From a virus: 64,000 nucleotides of DNA. The stretch is from the UHGV virus genome UHGV-0167591; one strand, 5' to 3'. The notes under the pieces were generated by a model that was not told the DNA's origin, searched no databases, and worked only from the letters and a program-made list of their open reading frames with translations. Positions 1 through 60,006 of this stretch are shown here, in pieces. Position numbers and translations under genes: made by a program. The stretch's first letter is position 1. The number at the start of each line of letters is the position of its first letter.

Positions 1-83
1 CGACTCTGAACCCCAAAGCAGCCTGGACCTCCGATCTCCTCCGTTCAGATAATTCAGATATGTAGCACTCCTACGCCAACGAT

Positions 84-2150
84 ATGATCGAAATGCAGAT
101 GTATACCGCGAAGGATGACGGCGAACGTCTGGCAATGATGCAGGTTCAAATGGATAAGGCGAAAGCTGCGAAACGCGCTCGCCAGAAAGAACAGGCTACT
201 ATCGACCTTCAGAACTACATCAAGGCGCAGCACGCAGCTGGTGAGGATGTGGAGGTACTTACCGCTGAATTGGAGCGAAGCAAAGCGGAACTTGAAAAGA
301 CCACCGCCGACGTCGCCAAATTCAAACAGGCGGTAATGGCCAAAGCAGCTGATAACGCAGACTGGAAAGCCCGCTGGGGTAGCGTCCATCACACAGACCG
401 TATGTTGTTAGCACAGTATCGCGCGTCGTTGAAAAGCGCCATTCAGCGCAAGGCTAATATCTCTCAGGCCATCTCCCGCTATGAGAAATTATTGAACCGT
501 ACTCAGAAGGCCGCGACGGATATCAAACGCCTGCGCCCGCTGGTGGAGGATGCAATAAATAAAGGCATTCTGGATGTTGATCCTGATCTGGTTAACCATG
601 CGAATGAGTTCCTTGTTATCGGCGATCGCTCATGGCGTGTAGGCCAATACTATGATTGTGCCGGTGATATCGTTCGCATTAAGTCGCTGGACTTCGACAG
701 CCAGCGCGCAGACGTGGAGATCATCTTTACCTTCAAAGGCACCAAATCGGGTAACTGGGATGTGAAGACGCTGGATAAACAGGTTGATGTAACTCCCGAT
801 GAAGATGCTGTTATGCAGAAAATCAGTGGTGGCGTCTCCATCGCCGGGATTAACGACATCATTTCCTGTGACGATTTCTACCGTTTCCAGCAGCGCGGCA
901 TGATCAAAATCACTGACTCATACGGCGTTCAGACTACAGAGTCAGGCTATAGCATTGATTTTGTTGGTACCTATACGGACCCACTGAAGCATGCGGTTTA
1001 CCCGGATCGCCGTGACGGCGCGCTGAAGTCGTCAATTGCAAAATGGGTGCTTGGTATGATGTCGGAAGGGAATAACCGCCAGATCCGTTCGGCAGAAACA
1101 TTCCTGGTTGAACTGTTTGGCTCCAATTATGGCGATGTAATCGCGTCATACGGAGATACGCTATCCCCTGAAGCAATTCAGGAGAAAATAGCGGATGCGA
1201 TCGCCAGAATGCCGGAAAAAACAAGCCAGGGGGCTACTCGTAACGGGGATTCTGAACTTGAAGTCACCAATGCCATTTTCGGTACCAATGAGTTCCGGGC
1301 GTCAGATTATGAGATCACCACAGCACAGTTTGGCACCATTGGCATTTACAGCAATAAAGCCGAGATCAAGCAGGCAATGGACGCAGCAAGCGCGCGCATC
1401 GCAGCAGAACGGGAAGCCAATCTGAATCATGCAGTCGCCGCACTGACTCAATCGTGGGTAACAGCAATCAGGGAGGCCGCCACCACAGGGAAAATCACAC
1501 CTGCAATTGCGGATGTCGTAAACGACGGCTCTAAATTTATGGATGCCTATCAAATGGATGCGGTGCAGTTGCCATCAGCCTATGGCCAACTCAGCTATCG
1601 CATGACCTACAACCTGGTATCAATGTTTACTGACCTTGCCATCCTTGGGCTGGTGGACCTTAACGAGGTTACGCCGGAATTACTCAGCATGCGCAAGAAT
1701 CATGTTGAGATATTGCAGAGAATTAACACGGTTCTTGCCGGGCGCACCGATGAAGAGAAACAGGCCGACGCTGATCGGATAAACCTGGCCCTAGGCAACA
1801 TCACGGAGGAAGAAATTGCCGCCAGAAACGAGAAACAAGAAGAGTTATCATCAATACAGGGTGATGCCACCAGCATAGCTCAGTCTCTTGGGCTGAATTA
1901 TCGCGTATCCACCGCCGACCTGAAGATGATGTACGCACCAAAATTCGCCGCTGGCGAGGTATTTGGGCTTCAGGAAGCCTCCGGCATGAAAGGGGTTCTT
2001 TTCCGTGCGAAAGACGCAATCAAGGCGAAATTCGGCGCTCGCTGGTTGCCAGCGAAGGCGAAGAACAGCGACTTCCCAGGTAACTGGTGGATTATCGAGA
2101 CAAAACACAACGTGGCGGACGTTCTGGCCGTCATCCAACAATACGCATAA
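84..2150 (+). CDS. Large coiled-coil protein of unknown function (688 aa), upstream of the ulx/lxc pair
   Basis: Complete ORF; in-frame stop at 63-65 precedes it; N-terminal A/K/E/Q-rich coiled coil; no nucleotide-binding or helicase motifs seen. No clear SD, start uncertain. Confidence 0.6.
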   Translation: MIEMQMYTAKDDGERLAMMQVQMDKAKAAKRARQKEQATIDLQNYIKAQHAAGEDVEVLTAELERSKAELEKTTADVAKFKQAVMAKAADNADWKARWGSVHHTDRMLLAQYRASLKSAIQRKANISQAISRYEKLLNRTQKAATDIKRLRPLVEDAINKGILDVDPDLVNHANEFLVIGDRSWRVGQYYDCAGDIVRIKSLDFDSQRADVEIIFTFKGTKSGNWDVKTLDKQVDVTPDEDAVMQKISGGVSIAGINDIISCDDFYRFQQRGMIKITDSYGVQTTESGYSIDFVGTYTDPLKHAVYPDRRDGALKSSIAKWVLGMMSEGNNRQIRSAETFLVELFGSNYGDVIASYGDTLSPEAIQEKIADAIARMPEKTSQGATRNGDSELEVTNAIFGTNEFRASDYEITTAQFGTIGIYSNKAEIKQAMDAASARIAAEREANLNHAVAALTQSWVTAIREAATTGKITPAIADVVNDGSKFMDAYQMDAVQLPSAYGQLSYRMTYNLVSMFTDLAILGLVDLNEVTPELLSMRKNHVEILQRINTVLAGRTDEEKQADADRINLALGNITEEEIAARNEKQEELSSIQGDATSIAQSLGLNYRVSTADLKMMYAPKFAAGEVFGLQEASGMKGVLFRAKDAIKAKFGARWLPAKAKNSDFPGNWWIIETKHNVADVLAVIQQYA

Positions 2151-2183
2151 CAGGAGCGCCCGGTTCGCCGGGCGTCGCATAAT

Positions 2184-2624
2184 ATGGCCACATTATCTGA
2201 TACAATAAAACCGAATAAAACATATCTTGAGGCGGTGCTGCGTACGGCGTTGTTAGGAAAGACAGAAGACGAATACGTTGATTTCTTCCTGTCAGGGCTA
2301 CGCGGGCGATTACTGAAAAATCCCCGCCTGTACCGCAGCTATGGTCCATACTGGCCGGAAATTAAAAAATTATTACTGGAGCGCGGTTATGGTAATTTCG
2401 GTCGTCTCGTTGACCGTGACGTTCGCAAAATTTACCGTTATGACCGTCCGGCGCTGACGCTCATAGCCGCGACGCTCTACAGCCAGGAGCGTTTTGATAA
2501 TGGTCAGATATACTCAGCCTGGCATTTACTGCCAGTGCCTGAAGAGGTTGACGACCAGGACTATGAGTTTGAGTCTTACGATTTGGAAGTTGAAGCCTTG
2601 GCACAGGCTGGAGAGAAAACTTGA
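2184..2624 (+). CDS. Ulx-like protein (gene upstream of lxc), 146 aa
   Basis: ORF immediately upstream of and overlapping the lxc start (TTGA overlap); position matches P1 ulx; sequence identity not verifiable. Confidence 0.55.
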   Translation: MATLSDTIKPNKTYLEAVLRTALLGKTEDEYVDFFLSGLRGRLLKNPRLYRSYGPYWPEIKKLLLERGYGNFGRLVDRDVRKIYRYDRPALTLIAATLYSQERFDNGQIYSAWHLLPVPEEVDDQDYEFESYDLEVEALAQAGEKT

Positions 2625-2869
2625 AAAAGCGATACTACACAGTAAAGCATGGGACGCTACGAGCATTACAAGAGTTTGCTGATAAGCATAACGTTGAGGT
2701 GCGCAGGGAAGGGGGAAGTAAAGCTCTGCGCATGTACCGTCCGGACGGGAAATGGCGTACGGTCGTCGATTTCAAAACTAACAGCGTTCCCCAGGGCGTC
2801 CGCGACCGGGCATTCGAAGAATGGGAGCAGATCATCATAGATAATGCATTGCTCCTGAATGCTGATTGA
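2621..2869 (+). CDS. lxc: Lxc/Bof-like C1 co-repressor, 82 aa, TTG start
   Basis: 82 aa basic protein with TTG start overlapping upstream stop; size, start codon and position match my recollection of P1 bof/lxc. Confidence 0.55.
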   Translation: MKKRYYTVKHGTLRALQEFADKHNVEVRREGGSKALRMYRPDGKWRTVVDFKTNSVPQGVRDRAFEEWEQIIIDNALLLNAD

Positions 2870-2930
2870 TTTCCTGTTAGGTCACTTTATTTTTTAGAGT
2901 GGCCTAAATTACTCTTAATGAGGATGTGAT

Positions 2931-3881
2931 ATGAATGTTTTTATTGATACAAATCTATATTTGGAATTTTACAGGATGGGTAAAGATAAACTAGATGAGC
3001 TGGATAAAGTATTTGCCTTACATCAATATGGTCGTTTAAAACTTTGGTTACCAGAGCTTTTAGTGAATGAGTTCTGGAGGAATCGTTCTAAAGTTCTCTC
3101 TGAAACCATAAAGGAAATAACAAAAGATTATAAGCCCGCGCTTCCCCAGATTTTTAGGCAACATGAAAAGCATTCACAATTTAATGATAAGGTTATAGAA
3201 GCAGGTAGGTTAAAGAATGAAATTATTACAGATATCCAGAAATTGTTTAAAGAGGAGGCTTTGGCTGCCGATATTGTAATTAAAAGGATTTTTGATGCAG
3301 CATCTAAAATAGAGGCTGATGATGAAACAATAGATAAGGGGAAACTTCGATTTGATCTTGGAAACCCGCCTGGCAAAAATAAATCATATGGTGACGCAGT
3401 TAATTGGGAATGTTTGCTAAAAGCGATACCAGACGGTGAGGATATATATATCATAACTGAAGATGGTGATTATAAAAGTGCCTTTATAAAGGATGATATG
3501 AATGAATATTTGAAGCATGAGTGGAAAAAAAAGAAAAATTCAGAACCACATATCTATTCCCGCTTATCAGAGTTTATAGGCGAGCACTTTCCTCAAGCTA
3601 GTAACTTGGTGGAAATGGAAGTTAATCTCACTATAGATGAATTACGACACTCTGGCAGTTTTGCTACAACACATCGAGTTGTAGCAAAATTATTAAAGCT
3701 CACTCACTTTACACAAGAGCAAATCCTAAAAATAATTGATATTTATTTTGAAAATGATCAGGTTGGTTACATCAAAGATGATGATGATGTGAAACTTCTT
3801 GCCAGAAGACTAATATCATTAGGTGACGAGGATAAAGATCCTGAAGGGATGCTGGAGACATTCCGTGTATTTATTGATTAG
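2931..3881 (+). CDS. PIN-like domain protein (predicted nuclease), 316 aa; candidate defence/abortive-infection gene in the P1 res-mod slot
   Basis: N-terminal MNVFIDTN motif typical of PIN first strand; further acidic motifs (LPELLVNEF, GDAVNWE, IITEDGDY); strong SD GAGGA 8 nt upstream; visibly AT-rich versus flanks. Confidence 0.75.
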   Translation: MNVFIDTNLYLEFYRMGKDKLDELDKVFALHQYGRLKLWLPELLVNEFWRNRSKVLSETIKEITKDYKPALPQIFRQHEKHSQFNDKVIEAGRLKNEIITDIQKLFKEEALAADIVIKRIFDAASKIEADDETIDKGKLRFDLGNPPGKNKSYGDAVNWECLLKAIPDGEDIYIITEDGDYKSAFIKDDMNEYLKHEWKKKKNSEPHIYSRLSEFIGEHFPQASNLVEMEVNLTIDELRHSGSFATTHRVVAKLLKLTHFTQEQILKIIDIYFENDQVGYIKDDDDVKLLARRLISLGDEDKDPEGMLETFRVFID

Positions 3882-3887
3882 TATAAT

Positions 3888-3906
3888 GGGCGCATAGTTA
3901 GCGCCC
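3888..3906. terminator. Stem-loop between convergent genes (GGGCGC-atagtta-GCGCCC)
   Basis: Perfect 6 bp GC stem with 7 nt loop between the stops of the 2931-3881 and 3914-4555 genes; no strong U-tract. Confidence 0.35.
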
Positions 3907-3913
3907 AATAAGT

Positions 3914-4555
3914 TTAAAGATAATTATCTTTACCAGTTAATGAACCTTTAGGCACTTTCCGCGCGGCAATTTCATGAGTAGCTTGAATTATATTCACTAG
4001 GGGACTTAGTAACGACGTATCCTGATTGGCCTCAACTTCTCCTGCCATTGACCTGATGTAGTCGGCGCTGGCAACGTTGTTGTATTCCGTCGCAAAGCAA
4101 CATAGTAAGGTCAGAACATGCTCTGTCGTTATTTCGCTCCAGTTGATGTTGAAAAATTCATCGCCTTTTTTATCGTGTTCGGAATCGAAGATGCTTTGGT
4201 GGAGGATGTATTTGCCGGATTCCTTGCGCGGTAACTTGATTGCTTTCTGGCGTTCCAGCTCCTTATAAATCTGCATTGCTTCAATCAGTACCGGTCTGCC
4301 GTTCATGAAGGGATCACGCAACCTTACACGCTGGCCAACTCGACCGGTAATAAAGCTGTTTTCCTCTTCCACCAGCACGATAAAACCCTTTTCCTCTTTT
4401 TCTCGCAATTCGCGCAGCAGCTGGAGTTCCATATCGCGGCGGCGTTCAGGGTAGCTGGTCCGCTCAGCCATTATCAGCTCATTGTTGATCCATGCAGCAG
4501 TCATTGACGCCGGTTTGCCGACGCTCATTGAAACAACGCATATTTTCTTATCCAT
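3914..4555 (-). CDS. Hypothetical protein (213 aa) downstream of ref, in the position of P1 mat
   Basis: ORF on same strand as ref, about 190 bp downstream; ATG at 4555 chosen over upstream GTG at 4582; no recognisable motifs. Confidence 0.55.
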   Translation of the reverse strand: MDKKICVVSMSVGKPASMTAAWINNELIMAERTSYPERRRDMELQLLRELREKEEKGFIVLVEEENSFITGRVGQRVRLRDPFMNGRPVLIEAMQIYKELERQKAIKLPRKESGKYILHQSIFDSEHDKKGDEFFNINWSEITTEHVLTLLCCFATEYNNVASADYIRSMAGEVEANQDTSLLSPLVNIIQATHEIAARKVPKGSLTGKDNYL

Positions 4556-4743
4556 AGCGCCCCTACAAAAAAGAAAAGCCACCAGCGGCGGCTTAGCAAT
4601 ACAACTGAAGGTAGCGCCCGGTACTCAGACTGTGCCGTCCATGGAATATTTGAAAAGGGATCCATCCGTACCGGGCGTGTGATGATTCTGACTGAAGTCA
4701 CTTGTCAGTTGTCAATCATTTATCATTAAAAATAATATATTTA

Positions 4744-5304
4744 TTAGTGCATGATGTTTGCCATCTCATAGGCGTCAGCCAGTAACTCCATCTCTGACTT
4801 GTTCAGCAAGGTGAATTCTTTCTTGCCTCCAACCACACCATCGGCATGAACAGGGACCAGCCATGGGTATTTTTCTCTTACTTCAGCCGGAGCTGCATGC
4901 TGGTGGTGCCATCTACAAAGTGGCAATTGCTTTTTATGACAACCCGGCGCGGTACGACCGGCGATATGGTGCAGAGACACCTCATTAGATATTACTCCAT
5001 GCATATAGCAGGCAATGCAGGGGAGAGCGCCAAGAGCATTGGCGATGCGCCGTTCCTCCGCCGTTGGTGTTCTCCCCTTCAAGCCACGAGATTTTATTTT
5101 TACCGCGATTTTCCGCGTTTTGCTGGCTGGTGGGCGCTCTTTCTGTTTAGCGATACGGCGGTCGAGAGTATCCCGCATTTTCTGATATTGAGATTCTCGC
5201 CAGACCGGATCAGCCAACTTCTCCCGTTGCCGAGCGATCGCTCGTTCTCTGGCTGCCTTCTGCCACTTGCGGCACTGTTCAATTTTTTGTTCGATTGTTT
5301 TCAT
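4744..5304 (-). CDS. ref: Ref recombination enhancement function (HNH endonuclease), 186 aa
   Basis: 186 aa; Cys/His-rich HNH-like C-terminal half (CIACYMHG, HHIAGR, CRWHH); basic N-terminus; C1 operator upstream; matches P1 Ref. Confidence 0.85.
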   Translation of the reverse strand: MKTIEQKIEQCRKWQKAARERAIARQREKLADPVWRESQYQKMRDTLDRRIAKQKERPPASKTRKIAVKIKSRGLKGRTPTAEERRIANALGALPCIACYMHGVISNEVSLHHIAGRTAPGCHKKQLPLCRWHHQHAAPAEVREKYPWLVPVHADGVVGGKKEFTLLNKSEMELLADAYEMANIMH

Positions 5305-5401
5305 ATGGCAAAAAAAGGCGGCCTAATGGCCGCCAATGATGTCAAGGAGTGAAGTAATGGCAACGTCTTCGTAGTTGACAAAAACTGCGGCTCAATTATA
5401 G

Positions 5402-5418
5402 CAATGAATTAGAGCAAT
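5402..5418. promoter_or_regulatory. C1 repressor operator-like site upstream of ref
   Basis: 14/17 match to reverse complement of P1 operator consensus ATTGCTCTAATAAATTT; second related motif 5391-5407. Confidence 0.5.
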
Positions 5419-5551
5419 GATAGATATTTTGTTTATCGCGAATCACATTTTTTCACTTCAGTACCTGTGTGCTATACTCCTTCTTGATTGATTGGATGCG
5501 GAATACAACCCCGCTCTTTTGTGCAGCCTGGCTCCTTGCCAGGCTTTTTTT

Positions 5552-5863
5552 TTATTTCATCATGGAAGCTGTTAACGCTTTGGACCTTGCTGAACTGATT
5601 GAAAGGACATTGTTAACCTTACCCAAGAGTTCGCCAAACTCAGACATCACTTTAGCAAAACCGCGCCGTGCTTCTTCCTCGGTGGCATTCATCACGAAAT
5701 GTTCAGCACTACGCATACTTTTGACAGGAAACGCAACGGATATTGAGTCAATATCAGGCATTCTATCGCTCAGCTTTACAGTGACAATGACGGCTGGCGA
5801 CTGAATATTAGTGCTTACAGACAGCACTACATATTTTCCGTCGATGTTGAAATCCTTTCTCAT
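5552..5863 (-). CDS. Hypothetical protein (103 aa) immediately downstream of cre (position of P1 cra)
   Basis: ORF on cre strand 50 bp after cre stop, with operator-like motif in between; function unknown. Confidence 0.45.
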   Translation of the reverse strand: MRKDFNIDGKYVVLSVSTNIQSPAVIVTVKLSDRMPDIDSISVAFPVKSMRSAEHFVMNATEEEARRGFAKVMSEFGELLGKVNNVLSISSARSKALTASMMK

Positions 5864-5879
5864 ATGTCACCATAAATAT

Positions 5880-5896
5880 CAAAGAATTAGAGCAAT
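5880..5896. promoter_or_regulatory. C1 operator-like site between cre and the downstream ORF
   Basis: 13/17 match to operator consensus (GAATTAGAGCAAT core). Confidence 0.4.
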
Positions 5897-5913
5897 CATT
5901 TACGCGTTAATGG

Positions 5914-6945
5914 CTAATCGCCATCTTCCAGCAGGCGCACCATTGCCCCTGTTTCACTATCCAGGTTACGGATATAGTTCATGACAATATTTACGTTGGT
6001 CCAGCCACCAGCTTGCATGATCTCCGGTATTGAAACTCCGGCACGGGCCATATCTCGCGCGGCTCCGACACGGGCACTGTGTCCAGACCAGGCCAGGTAT
6101 CTCTGACCAGAGTCATCCTTAGCGCCGTAAATCAATCGATGAGTTGCTTCAAAAATCCCTTCCAGGGCGCGAGTTGATAGCTGGCTGGTGGCAGATGGCG
6201 CGGCAACACCATTTTTTCTGACCCGGCAAAACAGGTAGTTATTCGGATCATCAGCTACACCAGAGACGGAAATCCATCGCTCGACCAGTTTAGTTACCCC
6301 CAGGCTAAGTGCCTTCTCTACACCTGCGGTGCTAACCAGCGTTTTCGTTCTGCCAATAAGGATTAACATTCTCCCACCGTCAGTACGTGAGATATCTTTA
6401 ACCCTGATCCTGGCAATTTCGGCTATACGTAACAGGGTGTTATAAGCAATCCCCAGAAATGCCAGATTACGTATATCCTGGCAGCGATCGCTATTTCCCA
6501 TGAGTGAACGAACCTGGTCGAAATCAGTGCGTTCGAACGCTAGAGCCTGTTTTGCACGTTCACCGGCATCAACGTTTTCTTTTCGGATCCGCCGCATAAC
6601 CAGTGAAACAGCATTGCTGTCACTTGGTCGTGGCAGCCCGGACCGACGATGAAGCATGTTTAGCTGGCCCAAATGTTGCTGGATAGTTTTTACTGCCAGA
6701 CCGCGCGCCTGAAGATATAGAAGATAATCGCGAACATCTTCAGGTTCTGCGGGAAACCATTTCCGGTTATTCAACTTGCACCATGCCGCCCACGACCGGC
6801 AAACGGACAGAAGCATTTTCCAGGTATGCTCAGAAAACGCCTGGCGATCCCTGAACATGTCCATCAGGTTCTTGCGAACCTCATCACTCGTTGCATCGAC
6901 CGGTAATGCAGGCAAATTTTGGTGTACGGTCAGTAAATTGGACAT
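5914..6945 (-). CDS. cre: Cre site-specific tyrosine recombinase, 343 aa
   Basis: Translation begins MSNLLTVHQNLPALPVDATSDEVRKNLMDMFRDRQAFSEHTWKMLLSVCRSWAAWCKLNNRKWFPAEPEDVRDYLLYLQARGLAVKTIQQHLGQLNMLHRRSGLPRPSDSNAVSLVMRRIRKENVDAGERAKQALAFERTDFDQVRSLMENSDRCQDIRNLAFLGIAYNTLLRIAEIARIRVKDISRTDGGRMLIHIGRTKTLVSTAGVEKALSLGVTKLVERWISVSGVADDPNNYLFCRVRKNGVAAPSATSQLSTRALEGIFEATHRLIYGAKDDSGQRYLAWSGHSARVGAARDMARAGVSIPEIMQAGGWTNVNIVMNYIRNLDSETGAMVRLLEDGD. Confidence 0.97.
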   Translation of the reverse strand: MSNLLTVHQNLPALPVDATSDEVRKNLMDMFRDRQAFSEHTWKMLLSVCRSWAAWCKLNNRKWFPAEPEDVRDYLLYLQARGLAVKTIQQHLGQLNMLHRRSGLPRPSDSNAVSLVMRRIRKENVDAGERAKQALAFERTDFDQVRSLMGNSDRCQDIRNLAFLGIAYNTLLRIAEIARIRVKDISRTDGGRMLILIGRTKTLVSTAGVEKALSLGVTKLVERWISVSGVADDPNNYLFCRVRKNGVAAPSATSQLSTRALEGIFEATHRLIYGAKDDSGQRYLAWSGHSARVGAARDMARAGVSIPEIMQAGGWTNVNIVMNYIRNLDSETGAMVRLLEDGD

Positions 6946-6952
6946 TTAACAC

Positions 6953-7174
6953 TCAGATAATGGTTTTAAGTAAAGTGTACAGGATCGGCTCTGCCTTTAC
7001 CTGTTTATGGTTCTCGTCATAGAAACGCCAGCGACCGCGCGTGCGTTCTATTTTCTCTTCACCGCGCGATAATGACAGTTGACAACTATCACGATCAAAC
7101 CCTTTTGCCCGCCAGTAACCACGGTTTTTCTCAAGCTCAATATGAGTGGACACTTTAGCAGCTGAATATCCCAT
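6953..7174 (-). CDS. Small basic ORF (73 aa) between loxP and cre; coding status doubtful
   Basis: ORF only; lies in the cre promoter region about 190 bp from loxP. Confidence 0.2.
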   Translation of the reverse strand: MGYSAAKVSTHIELEKNRGYWRAKGFDRDSCQLSLSRGEEKIERTRGRWRFYDENHKQVKAEPILYTLLKTII

Positions 7175-7363
7175 TTTTCACCTCTGATTGATTGGTGGTG
7201 CTAAGTGCGCTACGCGAAATCTGGAGCACTAACACTGCCAACATTTCGCAGATTTTACGTAGCGCAACCTTGATCAAATGATCAAGTGATCACTATTTGA
7301 CCTGATAAGGTATTGAACTGTATGGATTTACAGGTAAATTGATCATGTTCAATAACCCTTAAA

Positions 7364-7397
7364 ATAACTTCGTATAATGTATGCTATACGAAGTTAT
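7364..7397. other. loxP recombination site (34 bp)
   Basis: Exact ATAACTTCGTATA-ATGTATGC-TATACGAAGTTAT, two 13 bp inverted repeats around 8 bp spacer, about 420 bp upstream of cre. Confidence 0.98.
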
Positions 7398-7440
7398 CAG
7401 GTCAGAAGAGGAGTTTACGTCCAGCTGCGCACAAAAATCA

Positions 7441-7457
7441 AGAATTATTAGAGCAAT
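7441..7457. promoter_or_regulatory. C1 operator (immC region)
   Basis: 15/17 match to operator consensus (reverse orientation). Confidence 0.6.
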
Positions 7458-7514
7458 ACAATAAACCACTTTCTTCCAGCAAAAATCTGGATTGTTTTTC
7501 ATAGTTGTTTGACA

Positions 7515-7531
7515 ATTGCTCTAATAAATTA
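7515..7531. promoter_or_regulatory. C1 operator (immC region)
   Basis: ATTGCTCTAATAAATTA, 16/17 match to consensus ATTGCTCTAATAAATTT. Confidence 0.7.
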
Positions 7532-7601
7532 TAGTTTTGCCGCCGTTTCGTAATATGACACCAAGGCCACCTTCAGGTGTTATAGAGCGGCTCAGAGGGA
7601 A

Positions 7602-7706
7602 ATGAGCAAACAGGGAAACCTTATACAAACGGCATTACGGCTATGCATTGCTCATCTTACACACAGCGCAATGTTGTTAGATAACCCCAGCATGGATTAT
7701 GGGTGA
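7602..7706 (+). CDS. Small ORF (34 aa) upstream of coi (imcA/imcB-like position)
   Basis: ATG preceded by AGAGGGA SD; ends 54 bp before coi start; below the ORF-track size cutoff. Confidence 0.3.
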   Translation: MSKQGNLIQTALRLCIAHLTHSAMLLDNPSMDYG

Positions 7707-7759
7707 AACAGTAGGTCAGAGCTTCAGGCTCTGTGTTGTCAATACAGTGAGGCATAATT

Positions 7760-7969
7760 ATGGCTTTCATTCCACCAACCATCGACGACGTTAGACATTG
7801 CTCTAACGCTTTATCTGTAGACCCCGCCGAAACCGACGCTGCTCGCGCCATTGCTGAACACTACTCAAAGATATCCAATCAGGAGTACCGCATCACCCAA
7901 GACGACCTTGATGATCTCACTGACACAATCGAATATCTCATGGCCACTAACCAGCCAGACTCACAATAA
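7760..7969 (+). CDS. coi: Coi, C1 inactivator, 69 aa
   Basis: 69 aa acidic protein immediately upstream of c1; matches P1 Coi in size and position; SD GTGAGG. Confidence 0.85.
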   Translation: MAFIPPTIDDVRHCSNALSVDPAETDAARAIAEHYSKISNQEYRITQDDLDDLTDTIEYLMATNQPDSQ

Positions 7970-8079
7970 ATGCACTAATAAATCTATTATTTTTGCTGGA
8001 TCCTTCTATAATGGTGGTCAACAACTCTCAGTGTTATCCGCTGTGAGTTGTTGGCCATGTCAATTCTGGAGGAGGATCA

Positions 8080-8931
8080 ATGATAAATTATGTCTACGGC
8101 GAACAACTGTACCAGGAGTTCGTCAGCTTCAGGGATCTCTTTCTAAAAAAAGCTGTTGCACGCGCCCAACATGTTGATGCCGCCAGCGACGGACGTCCTG
8201 TACGCCCTGTTGTCGTTCTGCCGTTTAAAGAAACGGACAGCATTCAAGCTGAAATTGATAAATGGACATTAATGGCGAAGGAGCTGGAACAGTACCCAGA
8301 CCTGAATATCCCAAAAACAATTTTATATCCTGTTCCTAACATACTTCGCGGTGTGCGGAAGGTGACAACTTATCGGACGGAGGCTGTTAATAGCGTAAAT
8401 ATGACTGCCGGTCGCATTATCCATCTGATCGACAGAGATATTCGAATCCAAAAAAGCGCAGGTATTAGCGAACACAGCGCAAAGTACATAGAGAACCTGG
8501 AAACAACGAAAGAGCTGATGATGCAGTATCCGGAAGATGAGAAATTCCGTATGCGCGTACACGGCTTTAGTGAGACCATGCTCCGCGTCCACTACATTTC
8601 CAGCAGTCCTAACTATAATGGCGGTAAATCAGTTAGTTATCACGTCCCATTATGTGGCGTATTTATTTGTGACGAAACTCTCCGCGATGGGATTATCATC
8701 AATGGCGAGTTTGAGAAAGCAAAATTTAGTATTTACGACTCTATAGAGCCAATCATCTGCGATCGTTGGCCACAGGCGAAAATATATCGCCTGGCAGATA
8801 TTGAAAACGTAAAAAAACAAATTGCCATCACTCGCGAAGAGAAGAAGGTTAAATCAGCCGCATCAGTTACGCGTAGCCGTAAAACTAAGAAGGGGCAGCC
8901 GGTTAACGACAACCCCGAAAGCGCGCAATAG
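8080..8931 (+). CDS. c1: C1 immunity repressor, 283 aa
   Basis: 283 aa; begins MINYVYGEQLYQEF; SD GGAGG; located by loxP with coi upstream, as in P1 immC. Confidence 0.92.
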   Translation: MINYVYGEQLYQEFVSFRDLFLKKAVARAQHVDAASDGRPVRPVVVLPFKETDSIQAEIDKWTLMAKELEQYPDLNIPKTILYPVPNILRGVRKVTTYRTEAVNSVNMTAGRIIHLIDRDIRIQKSAGISEHSAKYIENLETTKELMMQYPEDEKFRMRVHGFSETMLRVHYISSSPNYNGGKSVSYHVPLCGVFICDETLRDGIIINGEFEKAKFSIYDSIEPIICDRWPQAKIYRLADIENVKKQIAITREEKKVKSAASVTRSRKTKKGQPVNDNPESAQ

Positions 8932-8955
8932 TTTCCGCCCGGCATGGTTAAAGAG

Positions 8956-10440
8956 CTATTCATTAAGCCATGCCAGAGCTTCATCAACCTGTGCTTCGTC
9001 TTCGACGCTAAGCACCTCATCCTGGGGAACATAATCCGCCAGCATAGCGAAACAATACGTATCCCAATGGTCTGGTGAGTGCAGGTTGAACTTTTTCTTC
9101 ATGTCTTCCTTAGTCATCACCCTCCATTGACCTGCGGAGTTAATACCTACAGGTATTTTCGACGCCTCCTCAATGGTTGCATTCCCCTTATCCAGTCTCA
9201 TACGACCAGATTTTACGGCCTCTGCGGCTTGAACGTTCGCATACGCACGCTTATCGTAGTACAGGCTTTTATCTTCACGGCTATGCATCTTTTTACCCCA
9301 GCGTATACGCTGTACGGTAATTCCATAATGCTCGTACATCAGATCCGCCGTTGCTTTCCCCAGGCCATCGCCGTCAATAGCTATAGTGATATTAGGGAAT
9401 CGTTCCGGGTTACATTCTGCGAAAATCTTTGCGGCAAGCTGCGTTTCTGTAACGTCTGTGTATTCCAGCATACGATAGTTAATTACACGGCGTTTATTTC
9501 GCTGTCCGGAAACCATCATGATATTGATAACGGACTTATCCCGACCTGTGCCACCAGCAACGTCAACACATGCAACCCATCCCCATCCTTTGGCGATCTT
9601 GACCTTGCGCCGCGTCGCACGCTCAACCTCATCACGACCAAGAAGGAAGCCATCCTGTGATTTAGGGAATAGGCCGCGTACCTTGATCAGGTACATAGGG
9701 TTATCACGCCCGCCATACTCCGCAAGTTTTGCTCGTATAAATTTTGCGTCTACAAGCGGAGACTCTTCACTATTCAGTGTTATCGCAGTAAACAATCCAT
9801 CAGGATTTCCTGGGCGAATCGCCAGTCTGTGGTGTGAATCGTAGAAATATCCAGAAGGTCGCGTAGGCTGAGAAAGAAGAAGAATACGGTTATCCTTACC
9901 AGTCAGCGCCCCTGTTATCACACTGAATGCTTTATCGCTAACACCCGAAGCTTCGTCGATGATATACAGGAGATGATCGGCGTGTTCACCAGCCAACGCC
10001 TCCTCATTTCCCGGGCGACAGGACTTTATCAGTATTGTCCAAACACCCTTGCCGGTTATCTCAAAAAAAGACGTTTCTGTAAGAATGAAATACTTTGACA
10101 ACCAGGGGAATCGGCTAACCGCAGTAGCCCAATTGCTCTTTATGTATTTAAAAATACCATCAAGCACTTGCTGTCTTTTGTTTGCGACCAGAATGACGCG
10201 AGCACCAGGGAAAAATATGATAAAGAGAATTGCAATGATACTCGTCATATCCGACTTACCAGTACCATGACCAGAGGTCACACTTGTCCAGCTTCCATCC
10301 TGTTGCGTGGACTCAATTATCTCATCCTGCTGCCAGGTTGGCGTCTTCCCGAACAAAACATCGGCGGCCGCAATCCAGTCATAACGATATAGAGCCACCA
10401 GCTCCCGCCAGCGTGGATCCGTAACGCAACTTCTGGCCAT
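8956..10440 (-). CDS. pacB: PacB terminase large subunit, 494 aa
   Basis: 494 aa; terminase-like ATPase/nuclease features; directly downstream of pacA with start/stop overlap. Confidence 0.88.
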
Positions 10441-11633
10441 TAATCATTATCCCCGTATAGCTTGCGGGTAACCTCTTCGTCTTCCTCCTCGTCTTCGTCA
10501 AGGTCTTGTTCCAGCCATGGATCGTTTGATACGCCTTCAGTATCAACATCGCCATAACCGCCTGTATCAACGATATCGGCGATTTCTTCCCTACGTTGTT
10601 CAATCCACAATGCAGCATCAGCGCGACGGTTAGCGGCCCGTTCTCGCGCGATTTTATCCAGATCTTCAAGCGATGGTGCGCCTGATGCTGTTTGGCTTTC
10701 CTCGTCATCTGCATTAGCTTTAGGAGCGCGCAGATCGGCTTTGATTTGCTCCAGCATCAGGGGTGGTACTTTCCCACCATGCGCCTCGATGAATTCGGCT
10801 GCTTCCAGCACTGACCAGTTGTTTTCGCGCTTTCGTTCGTATGCCAGCTTAACAATGCCTGCCTGCCCCATAGACAAAGCGTGCTTTTCCGCCTCCCGGC
10901 TTTCCTTTCGATAGTTATTCCGGATGCTGTAAATGGTGTTGATCAGGCTGCTTATCTGCGCGGAACAGCTGTTTAGCATGCTCGCGATACGGTATTCAGG
11001 CGGAGTCCCTTCATCATCGTCTTTTTGCTGATCGCGCATTTCCTGCACCAGGCGAATACACGTATCCCTGGCGTTTTCCAGCATAAGGAGATGAGAGAGT
11101 GACTTTTCCAGAAGAGTGGTTTCCAGAACGTCAGCCCCGGAACGACGCAACATTGCGCGCGCTGCCTTCCGCGCTTCAACGTTATCTATCAGGTAATCAC
11201 CTGCTTCGAATTCAAAGCGTTCCCCATCATCATCAAGGGTGTCGCGCTCCAGGCGATCACGTAAAGTCCGGTGGGCGCGGGTGATCACATCATGATCATC
11301 CGAACGATCCTTTATGCGCTTATTTTGGCGTTTCGCATTCTCGACAGCGGCACTGACAACAGCATTAACCCTCTGTTTTTCCACAATTTCAGCCACAATA
11401 TGATCACCAGCACGTTGATCATTAGCGTGATCAATGATCATGCTTTTCAGTGGCTTCCTGACCGGTTTATTTGGCTTGCGGCTGTCCGCTGTTCTGGTGT
11501 CTTCTTTGAAGGCACGGAGATAACGACGTGCGGTGTTTGGGTTGAGATTAAACTCGGCGGCATACTGTGCGATGGTGTAACCACCATCTCGCGCCAGGCG
11601 AGCAAAATTCTTCTTGTGATCGTCCCAGGTCAC
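10440..11633 (-). CDS. pacA: PacA terminase small/pac-recognition subunit, 397 aa
   Basis: 397 aa; contains the pac site with clustered TGATCA hexamers inside its coding sequence, as in P1. Confidence 0.9.
11282..11440. other. pac packaging site (Dam-methylatable TGATCA hexamer clusters)
   Basis: Three GATC hexamers at 11282-11310 and four at 11401-11440 inside pacA, matching the 7-site P1 pac architecture. Confidence 0.85.
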
Positions 11634-11719
11634 TTATGCTTCCTTTCGTATAAAACTCTTTTTGACGCGAGGGTAACGAAAGTCACATGTCAAAAGACCC
11701 GGAACGGGTAAACAATCAA

Positions 11720-12172
11720 TCAGATACGTGCTGAAGCGGCATTACCGAACTGACGGTGCTGACGGGCAACCTTATTGAAAAGTTGACGTGCCATTACCCA
11801 AGGCTGGTGTTCTCGGCGTTCCTTTTCGTCCTGCGTCATATAGAGTTCATTCTGGAGTTTTTCATCAAACCGGCGCGGGGCACGGCTACGGCGAAAGAAT
11901 TCAGGGTTCAGAGAGTGGATCTGAAATCTACGCGGGCGCGTACTGTCATCAATCAGAACAGACGAATATTTAGACACTGCAATAGCCTTTAAGCGCAGAT
12001 AGACATCGCGCTTATCGACATCAAGATGCGGGTATTCCTTTTCAAGGATTGCTGCGAGTTCTTTCGCTGATAGAAAAGACTTAGTGCGGATCATGTAATC
12101 CGCGATCTCATACGATGTTATTCGTGAGTGGTTTATTTCCATGAATTGGCGTCCCTGCCAGCTAAGTAACAT
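11720..12172 (-). CDS. lpa: Lpa late promoter activator (gp10-like), 150 aa
   Basis: 150 aa basic protein directly upstream of pacA; C1 operator in its upstream region; SD AGGTGA. Confidence 0.75.
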   Translation of the reverse strand: MLLSWQGRQFMEINHSRITSYEIADYMIRTKSFLSAKELAAILEKEYPHLDVDKRDVYLRLKAIAVSKYSSVLIDDSTRPRRFQIHSLNPEFFRRSRAPRRFDEKLQNELYMTQDEKERREHQPWVMARQLFNKVARQHRQFGNAASARI

Positions 12173-12242
12173 CCTGTCACCTACTGATTAGCCCATGTCA
12201 ACTAATCAACGATGGATATAATACTCTCGATTAAATAAATAG

Positions 12243-12259
12243 CAATACATTAGAGCAAT
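12243..12259. promoter_or_regulatory. C1 operator upstream of lpa
   Basis: 14/17 match to operator consensus (CATTAGAGCAAT core). Confidence 0.55.
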
Positions 12260-12260
12260 T

Positions 12261-13304
12261 TTATCTAACGATTGACGAGTGACTTGTGATAGCGCCTACT
12301 CCGAGCGCGTAATCAAAGAACAATCGTTGATGCATCGCCAGCCTACCGTGCTTACTCTCCCAATCATCGCGGTCACGCTCAATATCACGCTGGCATGACT
12401 GACATAGCGGAATCGCGTAAATGTCATGCGCGCATAATCGACTATGACGAACGATATAGGGCGTAATGTGAGCACCATCCCCCGCAGCTCCACAAGCACA
12501 ACATGGACGAGAAGCAACAAAGTCCATGTATTCGGGCAATTTTAGCGATTGCAGTTTTGGTATTTTGAAATGCGCCATACCTGGATCGGGGTCAACATCC
12601 ACAGGACATACTTTTGCACGCATCGGCGCGGCGCGTTCTTCCATCATCTGAACATATGCTGTAGCTCGATCGTCATACGGGCGAATATCCGCCTCTTTCA
12701 GAGGTCCGCTATCCTGCGGTGCAGCCTTCATCTTATTTATTGATATGCGGCAGACTTCTTCCGGCATCAGGTGCATCATGTTGCGTATGAAAGCCCACCA
12801 GCACAGCTCCTGAATACTTAAATCATGCCCATCTGAAAGGCCCATTTCCTGACGGGCTACATCCAGTATCCAGTTAACGCGATTATTATGCAGCGTTTCT
12901 GTCAGCTCATTAAAACCACGCATCCGGTAATGGTTATCGTGATGCCAGCACAACAACACCGCGCTATTGTCTCGTTCAGCGTGGACAATATGGTTGTCAC
13001 ACCAACTACGATCTGCGGCCTGGCATTGCCCCTCTTTCCTACGCAACCACGCCACCAGCGCGTCAATTCCACCAAGACGACGAAACAGTTCATCGCTGTT
13101 AAAAAACGGCTGCAATGCTTCGTTTGTTGCCATGGATTGCTCGGTAACAACGAGGCCATCTTCCATGTGCTCGATTAACTCGCGCGGCACCGGCTCCATA
13201 ATAAATTTACGGCCAGCCTCCACCAGCTTTCTGACCTCCTGATCCACTTTGAACGTGGCGAGGCCAAGCTCTTTCTGAACAAAGGGAGTAATTACGGCTT
13301 TCAC
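12261..13304 (-). CDS. Hypothetical protein, 347 aa, Cys-rich C-terminus (position of P1 pdcB)
   Basis: ORF between doc-side genes and lpa; C-terminal CCACG..C..CQSC cluster suggests zinc binding. Confidence 0.6.
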
Positions 13305-13331
13305 ATCACACCTTTCATCACTGATTGGGCT

Positions 13332-13532
13332 TTATCTGCTGCCCGGCATTCTCTGTTTAAGCACAACCATTTCCTGACGGCATAACACAGCAATAGCGGT
13401 CCTGACTCCAATTTGCTTACCAACCAGGTATTGCTTTACCTTGCGGCGACTCACGCCATCAAGAAGCATCTTTAACGCTTCACGGGACAATTTGTTGTAT
13501 TTGCGTGCCATTAATCTACTCCGCAGAACCAT
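13332..13532 (-). CDS. Small hypothetical protein, 66 aa (position of P1 pdcA)
   Basis: Short ORF overlapping the doc 3' end by 17 bp; coding status uncertain. Confidence 0.35.
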
Positions 13533-13896
13533 ACAATCTACGTAACGTGTCGGCGACAGAAGATACAGATATCTCGCCAGTCGCAGCGCCTACAGTAAGG
13601 TCTGCCAGTTCAGGTGAATCAAATACCTGCACCCCGTTACGGCGTAGAAATAGCAGCGCACTGTTTAGCGCGGTACGCTTATTGGCATCATTGAATATAT
13701 GCCCTCTCGCAGTAGCCACCAGGTAGGTGGCGGAGACTTCGAAAAGGTCGGTGATCTCTTCGTAGGCAACTCTGGCCTGAACTCTCCCGATAATGGCCTC
13801 TGCCCTACCCGGATCTGACATTCCCGGCAGGCCGCCGTAGCGGTTTATATTCGCATCATGAAGCGCAATAAGTTCTTCCGGTGATATATGCCTCAT
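13516..13896 (-). CDS. doc: Doc toxin (death on curing), 126 aa
   Basis: 126 aa, begins [22 protein letters not shown], Fic-family motif region; start overlaps phd stop. Confidence 0.95.
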
Positions 13897-14117
13897 TATC
13901 GGTTAACCAGTTCCTTGTTGGTGGAGTCCAGGGTGTCAAACAGGGATGCAAATTCAGCATCCAGCGCCGCTTTTTTGTAGGCTTCGAAAGTAGCCTTGCT
14001 GACAATTACTGCTGGCTCACGGCCTCTGCGGGTGATTTCAACCTCTTCCCCGGCTTCAACATTGTTGAGCACTTCAGAAAGGTTGCCGCGCGCGGTACGG
14101 AAGTTAATGGATTGCAT
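13896..14117 (-). CDS. phd: Phd antitoxin (prevent host death), 73 aa
   Basis: 73 aa from ATG at 14117 ([16 protein letters not shown]...); overlaps doc start by 1 nt. Confidence 0.95.
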
Positions 14118-14189
14118 AAACACCTCGTGTACTCGTTATGTGTACACAATTATAAACCTCACAGGCATAAAGCACCAGCCCTTTGCAGC

Positions 14190-14579
14190 TTAAATAACCG
14201 GACAATCATCAAACTCCCCACTTCGGGCATCATTGATGACATGAGTGATCACACCAAAAACAGCATTACTGCCCGTGCATCCATCGTCATCTACTGGTAA
14301 CGCCTCTTTCTTCCCGGTGCTTAAATCCTCCAGGTGCTGGCGCGGATACTTCCTGTATCTCTTTATGCGATATTCACCCTCCATAGCGCACACAAGCAGA
14401 GAACCATCAACCGGAGTAAGCGAGGAATCAACCACCAGCAAAGCACCCTGCAATATTCCCTCACGGTGATGGCTATCAGCTGCCCGCATGAAGTAGGTTG
14501 CTGATGGATGCCTGATTAGTTGCTGATCAAGAGAAATACGGCTCTCTGCATAATCCGCCGCAGGAGAAGGGAAGCCCAT
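14190..14579 (-). CDS. humD: HumD, UmuD'-like SOS mutagenesis protein, 129 aa
   Basis: S24 peptidase-like C-terminal domain lacking the UmuD N-terminal arm; LexA box directly upstream. Confidence 0.85.
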   Translation of the reverse strand: MGFPSPAADYAESRISLDQQLIRHPSATYFMRAADSHHREGILQGALLVVDSSLTPVDGSLLVCAMEGEYRIKRYRKYPRQHLEDLSTGKKEALPVDDDGCTGSNAVFGVITHVINDARSGEFDDCPVI

Positions 14580-14597
14580 AGCGTTTTACCTCAACAA

Positions 14598-14617
14598 TAC
14601 TGTTTATTCATACAGTA
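14598..14617. promoter_or_regulatory. LexA (SOS) box upstream of humD
   Basis: TACTGTTTATTCATACAGTA: perfect CTGT-N8-ACAG palindrome about 20 bp upstream of the humD start. Confidence 0.85.
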
Positions 14618-14678
14618 TACATTGAAAAGGCATAGTTTGTGAAAGCGGGGTTTGTACGCGCGCCACGCTGGGGGCTAA

Positions 14679-15029
14679 TCACATTGGTGGCGTGAACTTG
14701 CCATTCATATATTGCAAAATGCTTGACTCGATTTTTTCATTAAAATCAGAATGATACTCCTCAAGGACAAAGCGCGCCTTATTGTTGCGCACAATAACCT
14801 CCGCCAACGGCTTAACCAGAGATGTGGAGTTAGAGATTTTCTCGGCGCGCTCTACATCGCTTTTAAACGTTACGATGAAGTGCTGGTGGCCTGGTGACCG
14901 GCGACACAACATGCGTCGCACTTCCACGGTATCTTCACGGCCTTGAGTATGTACAGGAAAGCTATCGACCACCGCTGTATTGGTGCGGATTGTCTGCATA
15001 GAACGCGTGTTGTCGTGATAGTTAAGCAT
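14679..15029 (-). CDS. Hypothetical protein, 116 aa (position of P1 lxr); paralogue of 15337-15693
   Basis: ORF between hot and humD; shares QTIR...VV.S.P and F(I/L)xTxKS motifs with the divergent ORF at 15337. Confidence 0.6.
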   Translation of the reverse strand: MLNYHDNTRSMQTIRTNTAVVDSFPVHTQGREDTVEVRRMLCRRSPGHQHFIVTFKSDVERAEKISNSTSLVKPLAEVIVRNNKARFVLEEYHSDFNEKIESSILQYMNGKFTPPM

Positions 15030-15053
15030 GTTTAAGTCTCCCCCATCTTGCCG

Positions 15054-15305
15054 TTATTTTTTTTGCGCATCCTCGTTCTGATACACCGGATCGCTCCCTT
15101 TTGGCAACTGGAGGCTTAACTGCCGGTAGTGCCGTAGCCGTTCCATGAAATAGGCGCGCAGGTTTTCCGGTTGCTCACGGGCCACCTGCTCTGCAATCAC
15201 AGGTATATTCAGCCGTTCTTTGTAAGCAACGCCGCTGGCGGCAAGGTCTACGTTCACCTTGTCTCGCTCTTCCTGGCTTTTATCTGCTATATTTCGATCT
15301 GACAT
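15054..15305 (-). CDS. hot: Hot, homologue of DNA polymerase III theta subunit (HolE), 83 aa
   Basis: Motifs [33 protein letters not shown] closely resemble E. coli HolE. Confidence 0.88.
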
Positions 15306-15336
15306 AAGAACCTCCCGGAGTTAGTGGATCAGGCAC

Positions 15337-15693
15337 ATGCACAATAACGTTCTCAATGTTAGCCGTTCAATTCAGACAATCAGAGACTGCACCAGTGTGG
15401 TGGCATCAATCCCATTGCGAAATAGCATAGACGAACTGCAAATTCGTGTATTGAACCTGAATCATGCCAATGCAATTAAGCAATTGCGCTTTATTTTGAC
15501 GCTTAAAAGTGAAGCAGAGGGGGTAAAGCACAGCGTAAAAGTGTTTTCTGAGGCCATTCTGCTTAATGGGAAGCTCCGGCATCTGGTAAGGCCAGAACGT
15601 CAATATCCTGACGTCCTGGCTCGTGAAAAATACCTTCTTTCCGAAGTTCAAGATAAGGTGATCGATTTCGTTAAATCTCATCCCCTGCATTGA
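15337..15693 (+). CDS. Hypothetical protein, 118 aa, paralogue of the lxr-position protein
   Basis: Divergently placed 31 bp from the hot start; shares N-terminal motifs with the 14679-15029 product. Confidence 0.5.
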   Translation: MHNNVLNVSRSIQTIRDCTSVVASIPLRNSIDELQIRVLNLNHANAIKQLRFILTLKSEAEGVKHSVKVFSEAILLNGKLRHLVRPERQYPDVLAREKYLLSEVQDKVIDFVKSHPLH

Positions 15694-15732
15694 GAGCAGG
15701 TGTTCCTCTTTGAAACAAAGATGCCACCAGCA

Positions 15733-15999
15733 TTATGGTTCGCATTTCCAAATGGTGTTCTGAACGCCCGTGCCGGGCGCGAGATGTGGATTAGCGTTCG
15801 CGCTATGCTGATATACGGCTTTAGACTTTCCATATTGCTGACAGGCTTTATCTGCGGTTTTTTGCAGACTATCCAGCCCATACCAGCCATCTGACTGGAT
15901 GCTTACCTTTTCACCGTCGTTGTATTGCACCATTGCACACCCAGACATAGCCAAGATCGCGCCGACAATAACGCTTTTCCATAAAACTCTATGCAACAT
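15733..15999 (-). CDS. Putative lipoprotein, about 88 aa
   Basis: Signal peptide with lipobox LAMSGC near the N-terminus; start placed at the third Met of the ORF. Confidence 0.5.
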   Translation of the reverse strand: MLHRVLWKSVIVGAILAMSGCAMVQYNDGEKVSIQSDGWYGLDSLQKTADKACQQYGKSKAVYQHSANANPHLAPGTGVQNTIWKCEP

Positions 16000-16108
16000 A
16001 TACAAAAATCCCCTCTGTGAATTGAGGGGATTTTAGCATGGTGATCAGATATCAGCTTTATTCAGAATTTTACCCACCAGCTATGTGATTTTTTCTGACA
16101 GGTCATCT

Positions 16109-16915
16109 TTAATACTTGCACTTATGACATGCGAATCTCCACTGTTCATGGTCAAAGCACCAGAATACTTCCCTGGGCAGATTGTGTTTTTTCATTTGCG
16201 CCAGCACGTGCGTTGGCGTATTTGCGGGGATTTCTGGTAGCAAAGCCTTAGCCATTTCATGAATTAACATAGCATCTATTACCCCAAGCGTATGCCCCGC
16301 CTTAATCTTTAATGCGGTTTCAAGATGGCCCCTTTCCAGAGTTGTACTCACTCTTGGCTTCGGCGCTTGTGGATGGGTATCCAGACGGTTGCCAGATTCA
16401 TAGGCTACCCGCAGCCAGTGCATGAATGTTTCCGTAGACACACAACCGCAGTCCTGGTCGATTTTTTCGTGTTGCTGCCCCAGCCACTGCTCAAAATTTA
16501 ACTTGTTGGATGCTTCTAGAGCCTCTTCGTATTGTTTGCGCGAAATTATTTCCGTGTATTCCTCACGATCAAGGTTACTTATCGGGAGTCTGACCTCAAG
16601 GCAAAAATGGCGTCCTCGCAGGCTTTTTGCCGGGTCAGAGCCAAAAGCAAAGAGGCCATATGATGGTTCATACTCGTCCTCTCTAACCATGCGACAATCG
16701 AGCACATCATCAGGCCACCCTCCACGCTTTGGCAGCTCCTGCACCAATAAGTCAATCAGCTTTATTGTTTCACCATCCTTGCAGGTTGCTAACGCTATTT
16801 TGGCAAGCTCCAACACCTCATCTGCCGTATATCCAGCACCGTGACCATACATTTCTATTCGTGCGATAATGTCCAATAAACGAGTTTTAGTTATCCTCAT
16901 ATCGCTCACCATCAT
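16109..16915 (-). CDS. Hypothetical protein, about 268 aa
   Basis: ORF; start placed at internal ATG overlapping the upstream gene stop (translational coupling). Confidence 0.55.
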   Translation of the reverse strand: MMVSDMRITKTRLLDIIARIEMYGHGAGYTADEVLELAKIALATCKDGETIKLIDLLVQELPKRGGWPDDVLDCRMVREDEYEPSYGLFAFGSDPAKSLRGRHFCLEVRLPISNLDREEYTEIISRKQYEEALEASNKLNFEQWLGQQHEKIDQDCGCVSTETFMHWLRVAYESGNRLDTHPQAPKPRVSTTLERGHLETALKIKAGHTLGVIDAMLIHEMAKALLPEIPANTPTHVLAQMKKHNLPREVFWCFDHEQWRFACHKCKY

Positions 16916-17220
16916 AGATACACAAAAACCAAAACCCAAAGGCAGGCGACAGTAGGGACGGTAAAATCCTGCAAGCTCGCCATATCCCATACGCGTGGAT
17001 CGAAACCGCCCCACCAGGGCATATTGCTGCGCTTACCGTTCCCGAACTTGTTTATCCATCGGTATTCAGCCTGGGTGTGTTCACGCGCAATAAAGAACGT
17101 GATCCCTGCTATCGCTCCATAAATCCAGTTGCCAGTTAATGTGCCCATAAGCACCTGAGCTAAAACGGCACAAGCCGCATGTAATAATGGGGTAATATCA
17201 AAGGACTTATTATTTTTCAT
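16912..17220 (-). CDS. Putative membrane protein, 102 aa
   Basis: Two hydrophobic segments; part of a co-oriented gene string. Confidence 0.5.
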   Translation of the reverse strand: MKNNKSFDITPLLHAACAVLAQVLMGTLTGNWIYGAIAGITFFIAREHTQAEYRWINKFGNGKRSNMPWWGGFDPRVWDMASLQDFTVPTVACLWVLVFVYL

Positions 17221-17596
17221 TGCGTGACATCCTCTTCCATTTCTTTTCGCATTCCTTAGTCCAATTTTTAATGTTCATTTTGGCAATGTCAGTCATTCCA
17301 TCGCCTAAGAAATACTTTTTCCGGTATGTCTTACACTTAAACCACACTACAATAGCCACCAACCAGAAAATAAAAGGCCATACAGCAATGCCAACGACAG
17401 CCGCGATAAAGCCCAATAGCCATAAATGAAGCTCTCCTACTTCTGTTTCAGGCAATATCTTTAAAGAGTTAAACAGCAGACTGAACGAATGGTCGTATGC
17501 AGTGGCGGTATAAGACATGCAATCCATATAATTAAAATCATAGCCTGCGGCTGCCGCCCATAATGGGCGGTCAAGAAAATGTTTGAATGTCATCAT
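17210..17596 (-). CDS. Putative membrane protein, 128 aa
   Basis: Hydrophobic central region (LWLLGFIAAVVGIAVWPFIFWLVAIVVWF). Confidence 0.5.
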   Translation of the reverse strand: MMTFKHFLDRPLWAAAAGYDFNYMDCMSYTATAYDHSFSLLFNSLKILPETEVGELHLWLLGFIAAVVGIAVWPFIFWLVAIVVWFKCKTYRKKYFLGDGMTDIAKMNIKNWTKECEKKWKRMSRNEK

Positions 17597-17602
17597 ATGA
17601 AT

Positions 17603-17992
17603 TTAAGGTTCAGACCAGTTATCTTCAATAACAATACTTAATCTCTGTAGCCATTCTGCTAATTTCAGCATTGCTTCTCTTTCGCTTAACCCGCGCGGGA
17701 AATCATCAAGCGATATTGTTGGCTTGAAGTTCCCGAAATTATCCATTTCAACGGTCAGATTTTGCTCCAGCACGGTATTCCTTGCGCGACTATTGTGCCG
17801 AAGCAAATATACTGAATGTGATTCATTGGTTTTGTGGTCGAACGTATATTCGGTAAGTATCATCTGGCTTTTGCCATGACTATTACCTCTCCACATACTT
17901 ACCTCACTTAATAAAACAACTCCATGCGTAGTTGATGATTTTTTCCCACGCAATATAAATCTGCACTCCGGCAGTAAAACCAAAGCCAACAA
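17603..17992 (-). CDS. Hypothetical protein, 129 aa
   Basis: ORF in co-oriented string; no motif recognised. Confidence 0.45.
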   Translation of the reverse strand: MLALVLLPECRFILRGKKSSTTHGVVLLSEVSMWRGNSHGKSQMILTEYTFDHKTNESHSVYLLRHNSRARNTVLEQNLTVEMDNFGNFKPTISLDDFPRGLSEREAMLKLAEWLQRLSIVIEDNWSEP

Positions 17993-18074
17993 TTGCTGAA
18001 AAAATCAAAATATTTACTTTTGACATTATAAAATTTCTCTCGGTGCAGTAGGTGATAGCACCATAATTGATAAT

Positions 18075-18326: not shown

Positions 18327-18390
18327 ATTGAATACACAACCAGTGCTACCGCCATTGCAATTCCGACCGTGGTGAATGCCTCAGGCCAGC

Positions 18391-19580: not shown

Positions 19581-19581
19581 A

Positions 19582-59444: not shown

Positions 59445-59495
59445 ATATATGGTGGTTAACTAATTAAAATATTAATATCCAAAGGAGATAAATTA

Positions 59496-59972: not shown

Positions 59973-60006
59973 CCTGTCACAAATGACTACTCGTAGAATC
60001 GGTTAA

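Follow-up and report, generated by a model that had tools for sequence, protein, structure and literature searches.

The last third of a P1-like darB gene at the start of a metagenome contig

The locus and its genes

The window, by which we mean the whole stretch of 64,000 nucleotides analysed here from the virus genome UHGV-0167591, opens with an ORF on the + strand that runs from an ATG at 84 to a stop codon at 2148–2150 and encodes 688 aa. An in-frame TAG stands ahead of it at 63–65. A preliminary description of this DNA, made from its letters, had reported both, and the ORF listing and the raw sequence agree with it exactly. Two genes follow on the same strand: ulx (2184–2624, 146 aa), the Dar-system gene directly downstream of darB, and lxc (2621–2869, 82 aa), a modulator of the C1 repressor. 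Both have the length and position of their P1 counterparts, which lie at 8183–8623 and 8620–8868 of the P1 record L001. In that record darB encodes 2255 aa (1382–8149), and ulx and lxc, of 146 and 82 aa, come directly after it; the preliminary description had likewise placed a darB of more than 2000 aa before ulx and lxc in P1.

The ORF is the end of darB, the gene for a protein of about 250 kDa. In a BLASTP comparison with P1 DarB, its product aligned without gaps to residues 1568–2255, with 676 of 688 residues identical (98%). Clustering at 90% identity places it among 16,340 members, which are represented by a 2255-aa DarB (labelled ‘N-6 DNA methylase’), and the exact 688-aa product was found on one contig only. 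At the DNA level, positions 2–2867 of the window matched 12617–9752 of P1 (AF234172) at 97.4%, in a single ungapped block over darB, ulx and lxc. A megablast search of phage genomes with window bases 1–4000 matched 18 P1-like records, and across darB-ulx-lxc the DNA identity of P1, P7, SJ46 and RCS47 to the window was 97.4–97.9%.

The homology to DarB does not begin at the ATG. In the frame of ATG 84 it starts already at base 3, where the window reads TLNPKAAWTSDLLRSDNSDM followed by the stop and P1 reads TLKRKAGWISDILRSDKSEME. Because the homology runs from base 3, the frame that ends at 63–65 is the darB frame itself. Bases 3–2150 (+) correspond to P1 DarB codons 1541–2255 plus the stop codon, in a frame that is continuous with that of P1 darB and free of indels. 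The 688-aa ORF within it corresponds to residues 1568–2255, and ATG 84 is the conserved internal Met1568 and not a real start codon. We conclude that bases 1–2150 come from a P1-like phage-plasmid and make up the 3’ third of its darB, an already known gene that is truncated here by the start of the contig and of the window. In residues 1568–2255, in frame, in strand and in its position directly upstream of ulx and lxc, it is like P1 darB (AAQ13985.1 / YP_006479.1, 2255 aa). It differs in that the window holds the last third only, in that codon 1561 is TAG and not GAG, and in 13 more unique substitutions in the first 72 nt.

The preliminary description had proposed aligning the product and the bases before it to P1 DarB. 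That alignment placed both in DarB, in the same frame from base 3. Where it suspected that a larger gene had been split by a frameshift, it was right that the ORF is a fragment of a larger gene, the 2255-aa darB, but the frameshift itself is ruled out by the gapless, in-frame alignment to P1 darB. It also mentioned another reading frame ending at 50–52. A TAA is indeed present there, out of frame, but no upstream gene ends at it: P1 has the identical out-of-frame triplet at the same position, in a frame that is open for only 11 codons in P1.

A Pfam search of the 688 aa found no methyltransferase or helicase domain, in line with the earlier remark that the product shows no methyltransferase or Walker motifs; the sole match was Par3_HAL, below threshold. 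Such motifs are missing because all the domains of DarB precede residue 1517: in the full-length proteins of P1 and plasmid p28Eco12, Pfam places N6_Mtase/Eco57I at 145–290, SNF2/ResIII at 833–911 and Helicase_C at 1455–1517. An AlphaFold2 model of the 688 aa, built from a shallow alignment of 10 sequences, had a mean pLDDT of 47 and a pTM of 0.23, which is too poor for a fold search. At that low confidence, it predicts long helices only for residues ~12–159 and a mixture of alpha and beta structure beyond, so the label ‘coiled-coil’ that had been given to the protein is at best partly supported.

The slot downstream of lxc differs among these elements. Where P1 has the mod and res genes of the type III restriction-modification system EcoPI, the window has a single gene (2931–3881, +, within 2868–3984) for a 316-aa PIN-domain protein (PF16289 PIN_12, E = 1.9e-16; also PF18476 PIN_8). 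The PIN gene is found at this place in phage JL22 and plasmid p28Eco12 too, and in SJ46, 673R5 and p266917_2_02 a RelA/SpoT-domain gene fills the slot. The interval between lxc and mat thus resembles a hot-spot at which defence-type cargo is exchanged. In the mat region (3914–4701, −), one nucleotide of a G run near codon 36 is missing from the window, relative to the 250-aa P1 Mat annotation. This leaves an ORF of 213/222 aa from at or near MDKKICVV and a separate upstream ORF of 58 aa. The same split is annotated in JL22, and in several relatives the 213-aa form is the only one annotated. It is probably a common allele or an issue of start-codon annotation and not a defect.

The contig edge and the rest of darB

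An exact protein look-up placed the 688-aa gene at 84–2150 of ena:ERZ1311710:NODE_155_length_93538_cov_6.057596, so base 1 of the window is base 1 of the contig. This is a SPAdes-style metagenome contig of 93,538 bp with low coverage (~6x). Two sample entries, one in ENA and one in NCBI, hold it, and they are copies of one assembly and not independent confirmation of each other.

Apart from known variable regions, the window is colinear with P1. Its start corresponds to P1 12618, and its right end (64000) falls within sit, at P1 42607. The 29.5 kb of the contig beyond the window is comparable in length with the 30.0 kb of P1 that lies between 42606 and 12618. We infer that the contig represents a circular P1-like replicon of ~93.5 kb, essentially complete and opened within darB, and that the first ~1540 codons of the gene, its methyltransferase and helicase two-thirds, would be found beyond the window, at the opposite end of the contig. 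The assembly may have linearised a circular P1-like element in darB, in which case the window opens at DarB codon 1541. An insertion at the break in the contig, such as an IS, was considered and rejected, as bases 1–72 are still colinear with darB (58 of 72 identical).

The gene looks short for two reasons. Base 1 of the window is base 1 of the contig, which leaves the other 4.6 kb of darB outside the window, and within an error-like tip of 72 bases one G-to-T change has converted GAG to TAG. More generally, when an ORF starts less than ~100 bases from where a window or contig begins or ends, it can turn out to be the final part of a larger, already known gene.

Substitutions at the contig tip and the in-frame stop

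Bases 1–72 (+) carry 14 substitutions that are unique to this sequence. The best relative, p266917_2_02, differs from the window at 14 positions within bases 1–72 and at 18 within bases 73–2150 (Fisher p = 1.8e-13), with identity jumping directly after base 72 to 99.1% for the remainder. Among the differences from five references that are unique to the window in its first 2900 nt, 14 of 30 fall within bases 1–72. The TAG at 63–65 (+), which is GAG (DarB E1561) in P1 and in all relatives, arises from one of these 14, a G-to-T change at base 63. It is the single interruption of the darB frame within the window, and it sits inside the error-like tip.

The spectrum of the cluster is abnormal. Every one of the 14 substitutions is to C or T (P = 1e-4), and 12 of them are transversions. 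The two transitions compare with a transition background of 58% (P = 9e-4), which was taken from the 603 substitutions that separate the window, over its first 12 kb, from a close relative. Residues are altered by 12 of the 13 tip changes in complete codons, one of them to a stop. Of the canonical bases that were altered, 8 were G, 4 were A and 2 were T. Programmed hypermutation by a DGR, which involves a template repeat and a reverse transcriptase close by, would change template adenines only, so this set of bases does not have that signature, and the substitution spectrum rules out hypermutation of the DGR or deaminase type.

We found no other copy of the variant. Over bases 1–160, none of 589 plasmid records and 597 E. 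coli genome records exceeded 91.8% identity to the window, a ceiling that equals 13 alignable mismatches. Exact scans of IMG/VR and of GTDB genomes gave 0 matches to the tip variant, and the canonical counterpart of the tip sequence had 56 matches in IMG/VR. In 62 related loci, the corresponding 86-nt stretch occurs as five haplotypes only, which are at most 2 nt apart, and the window is 14–16 nt away from them. The tip substitutions were shared by none of the ~600 plasmid records, the ~600 E. coli genome records or these 62 loci. A junction with a divergent natural darB allele was rejected on the same grounds, as 12 of 13 changes alter residues, transversions dominate and the variant is absent from the databases.

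The cluster is therefore unique to this sequence, sharply bounded, asymmetric between the strands, unselected, abnormal in its spectrum and placed at the end of the contig. It is most likely a sequencing or assembly error that derives from a single poor read, probably through its low-quality tail. In such a process the error-rich 3’ tail of one read would have extended the contig tip and brought in the 14 substitutions of bases 1–72, the TAG included. Judging from this pattern, what looks like a stop codon most probably came in with errors at the end of the assembly. Where coverage is low, errors from read tails can enter the terminal bases of a de Bruijn-graph contig and pass for nonsense mutations. 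We give a probability of about 85% to the joint reading that the locus is the 3’ third of darB, that the contig was opened in darB, and that the TAG lies within a tip of read-tail errors.

A small but real chance remains for the stop being genuine. It does stand in the deposited sequence, and it would then be a nonsense mutation at DarB codon 1561, leaving a methyltransferase-helicase product of 1560 aa from a truncation allele or pseudogene of darB, with the last 688 codons untranslated or weakly re-initiated at Met1568. There is a precedent in the Salmonella phage SJ46, whose darB is interrupted in frame by a stop at codon 1499 and is split in its annotation into two CDS (AMR59972.1, 1493 aa, and AMR59973.1, 696 aa), and many of the matches in our homologue search are deleted or truncated derivatives of DarB. 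Like the window, SJ46 has a P1-like darB with an in-frame stop after the helicase C-terminal domain and a C-terminal ORF of ~690 aa upstream of ulx. Unlike that of the window, its stop is an isolated single change in the middle of a complete genome, with no cluster of odd substitutions around it, and SJ46 is canonical across the stretch that corresponds to window bases 1–150. In the window, 13 other unique substitutions accompany the TAG within 72 nt of the contig end, with a spectrum (14/14 to pyrimidine, 12/14 transversions, 12/13 residue-altering) that is unlike the natural divergence elsewhere in the window. Identity returns to 99.1% right after the tip, the tip substitutions occur in none of more than 1,200 related records, and there is no decay 3’ of the stop, where the protein is still 98% identical and free of indels.

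It is very improbable that the 688-aa product is expressed separately, as the second part of a natural two-gene darB with its own start at 84. The ATG does come 18 nt after the stop, and the 696-aa CDS of SJ46 is annotated from an ATG equivalent to window 60–62. Against this, the sequence before ATG 84, 93 and 99 has no Shine-Dalgarno complementarity (+0.1 to +0.3 kcal/mol). The value for ATG 84 is +0.3 kcal/mol, compared with −5.9 for the true start of P1 darB and −7.0 for the neighbouring PIN gene. In all relatives Met1568 is internal to a 2255-aa protein. The capsid-targeting signal of DarB has been mapped by experiment to the N-terminal 30 residues (PMC9024508), a region outside the window, so packaging of a C-terminal fragment on its own would be unexpected. 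Our homologue search for the C-terminal region also found no free-standing or distant homologues, only Escherichia and Salmonella DarB fragments and deletion derivatives. As for the other option in the preliminary description, that a different cargo gene has replaced darB in this slot, a short ORF with motifs missing could have suggested it, and the slot downstream of lxc truly is variable (PIN_12 here, res/mod in P1, RelA/SpoT in SJ46). We leave it next to no chance, since the ORF is 98% identical over its whole length to DarB 1568–2255, the DNA aligns ungapped to P1 darB, and the order darB-ulx-lxc is the normal one; these refute it. The reading that we prefer is still a darB cut by the contig start, with its stop in an error-rich tip.

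DarB in related elements and other regions of the window

DarB is a ‘defence against restriction’ protein of P1 that is packaged in the capsid, with the help of Ulx and DdrB. Presumably it enters the cell along with the DNA, which it shields from the type I restriction systems EcoB and EcoK (PMC9024508; PMC12810830). The role of the C-terminal ~700 residues is left undefined in both papers (PMC9024508; PMC12810830). The darB segment of the window leaves what is known of P1 and DarB unchanged. If the TAG were true, this DarB would be without its C-terminal 695 residues, like the SJ46 allele that stops at 1499. It would then hint that P1 relatives residing as plasmids can do without the C-terminal third or are losing it, and it would be one more darB-null allele among P1-like plasmids, which would be of minor interest.

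The gene order darB-ulx-lxc-PIN-mat-ref-cre of the window is also that of phage JL22 and plasmid p28Eco12, with 95–95.5% DNA identity over 4–12 kb. In these two, unlike the window, darB (gp010 and WP_060579130.1, respectively) is uninterrupted at 2255 aa. In SJ46 (KU760857.1; L003 7876–7878) an isolated change of Leu1499 to a stop lies just past helicase motif VI, and in vB_EcoM-673R5 darB is annotated in four pieces. Database proteins of 825–1022 aa (P0001–P0003, P0022 and P0027) combine the N-terminal methyltransferase domains of DarB with its C-terminal region and are without the helicase. Their sequences suggest that internal in-frame deletions of darB circulate among P1-like plasmids of Escherichia (E. 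coli and E. fergusonii).

Elsewhere in the window, the c1/coi-pacAB-lpa-pdc region (7381–14340) is 92.9% identical to P1, compared with 97–98% in other parts. The next 7 kb (14341–21324), beside phd/doc, has no counterpart in the P1 reference records that we used. Its genes include an S24 peptidase (HumD/UmuD-like), a DUF551 protein, an Ead/Ea22-like protein and several ORFs with no Pfam match, and it matches other P1-like phages piecemeal (at most 43% coverage) as well as many lambdoid and Stx phages. Four shorter segments of 0.4–1 kb (35793–36273, 38923–39363, 56624–57117 and 58937–59978) also have no match in P1, and they are located near tRNA/tci, inside dmt, and in the immunity I / sim area.
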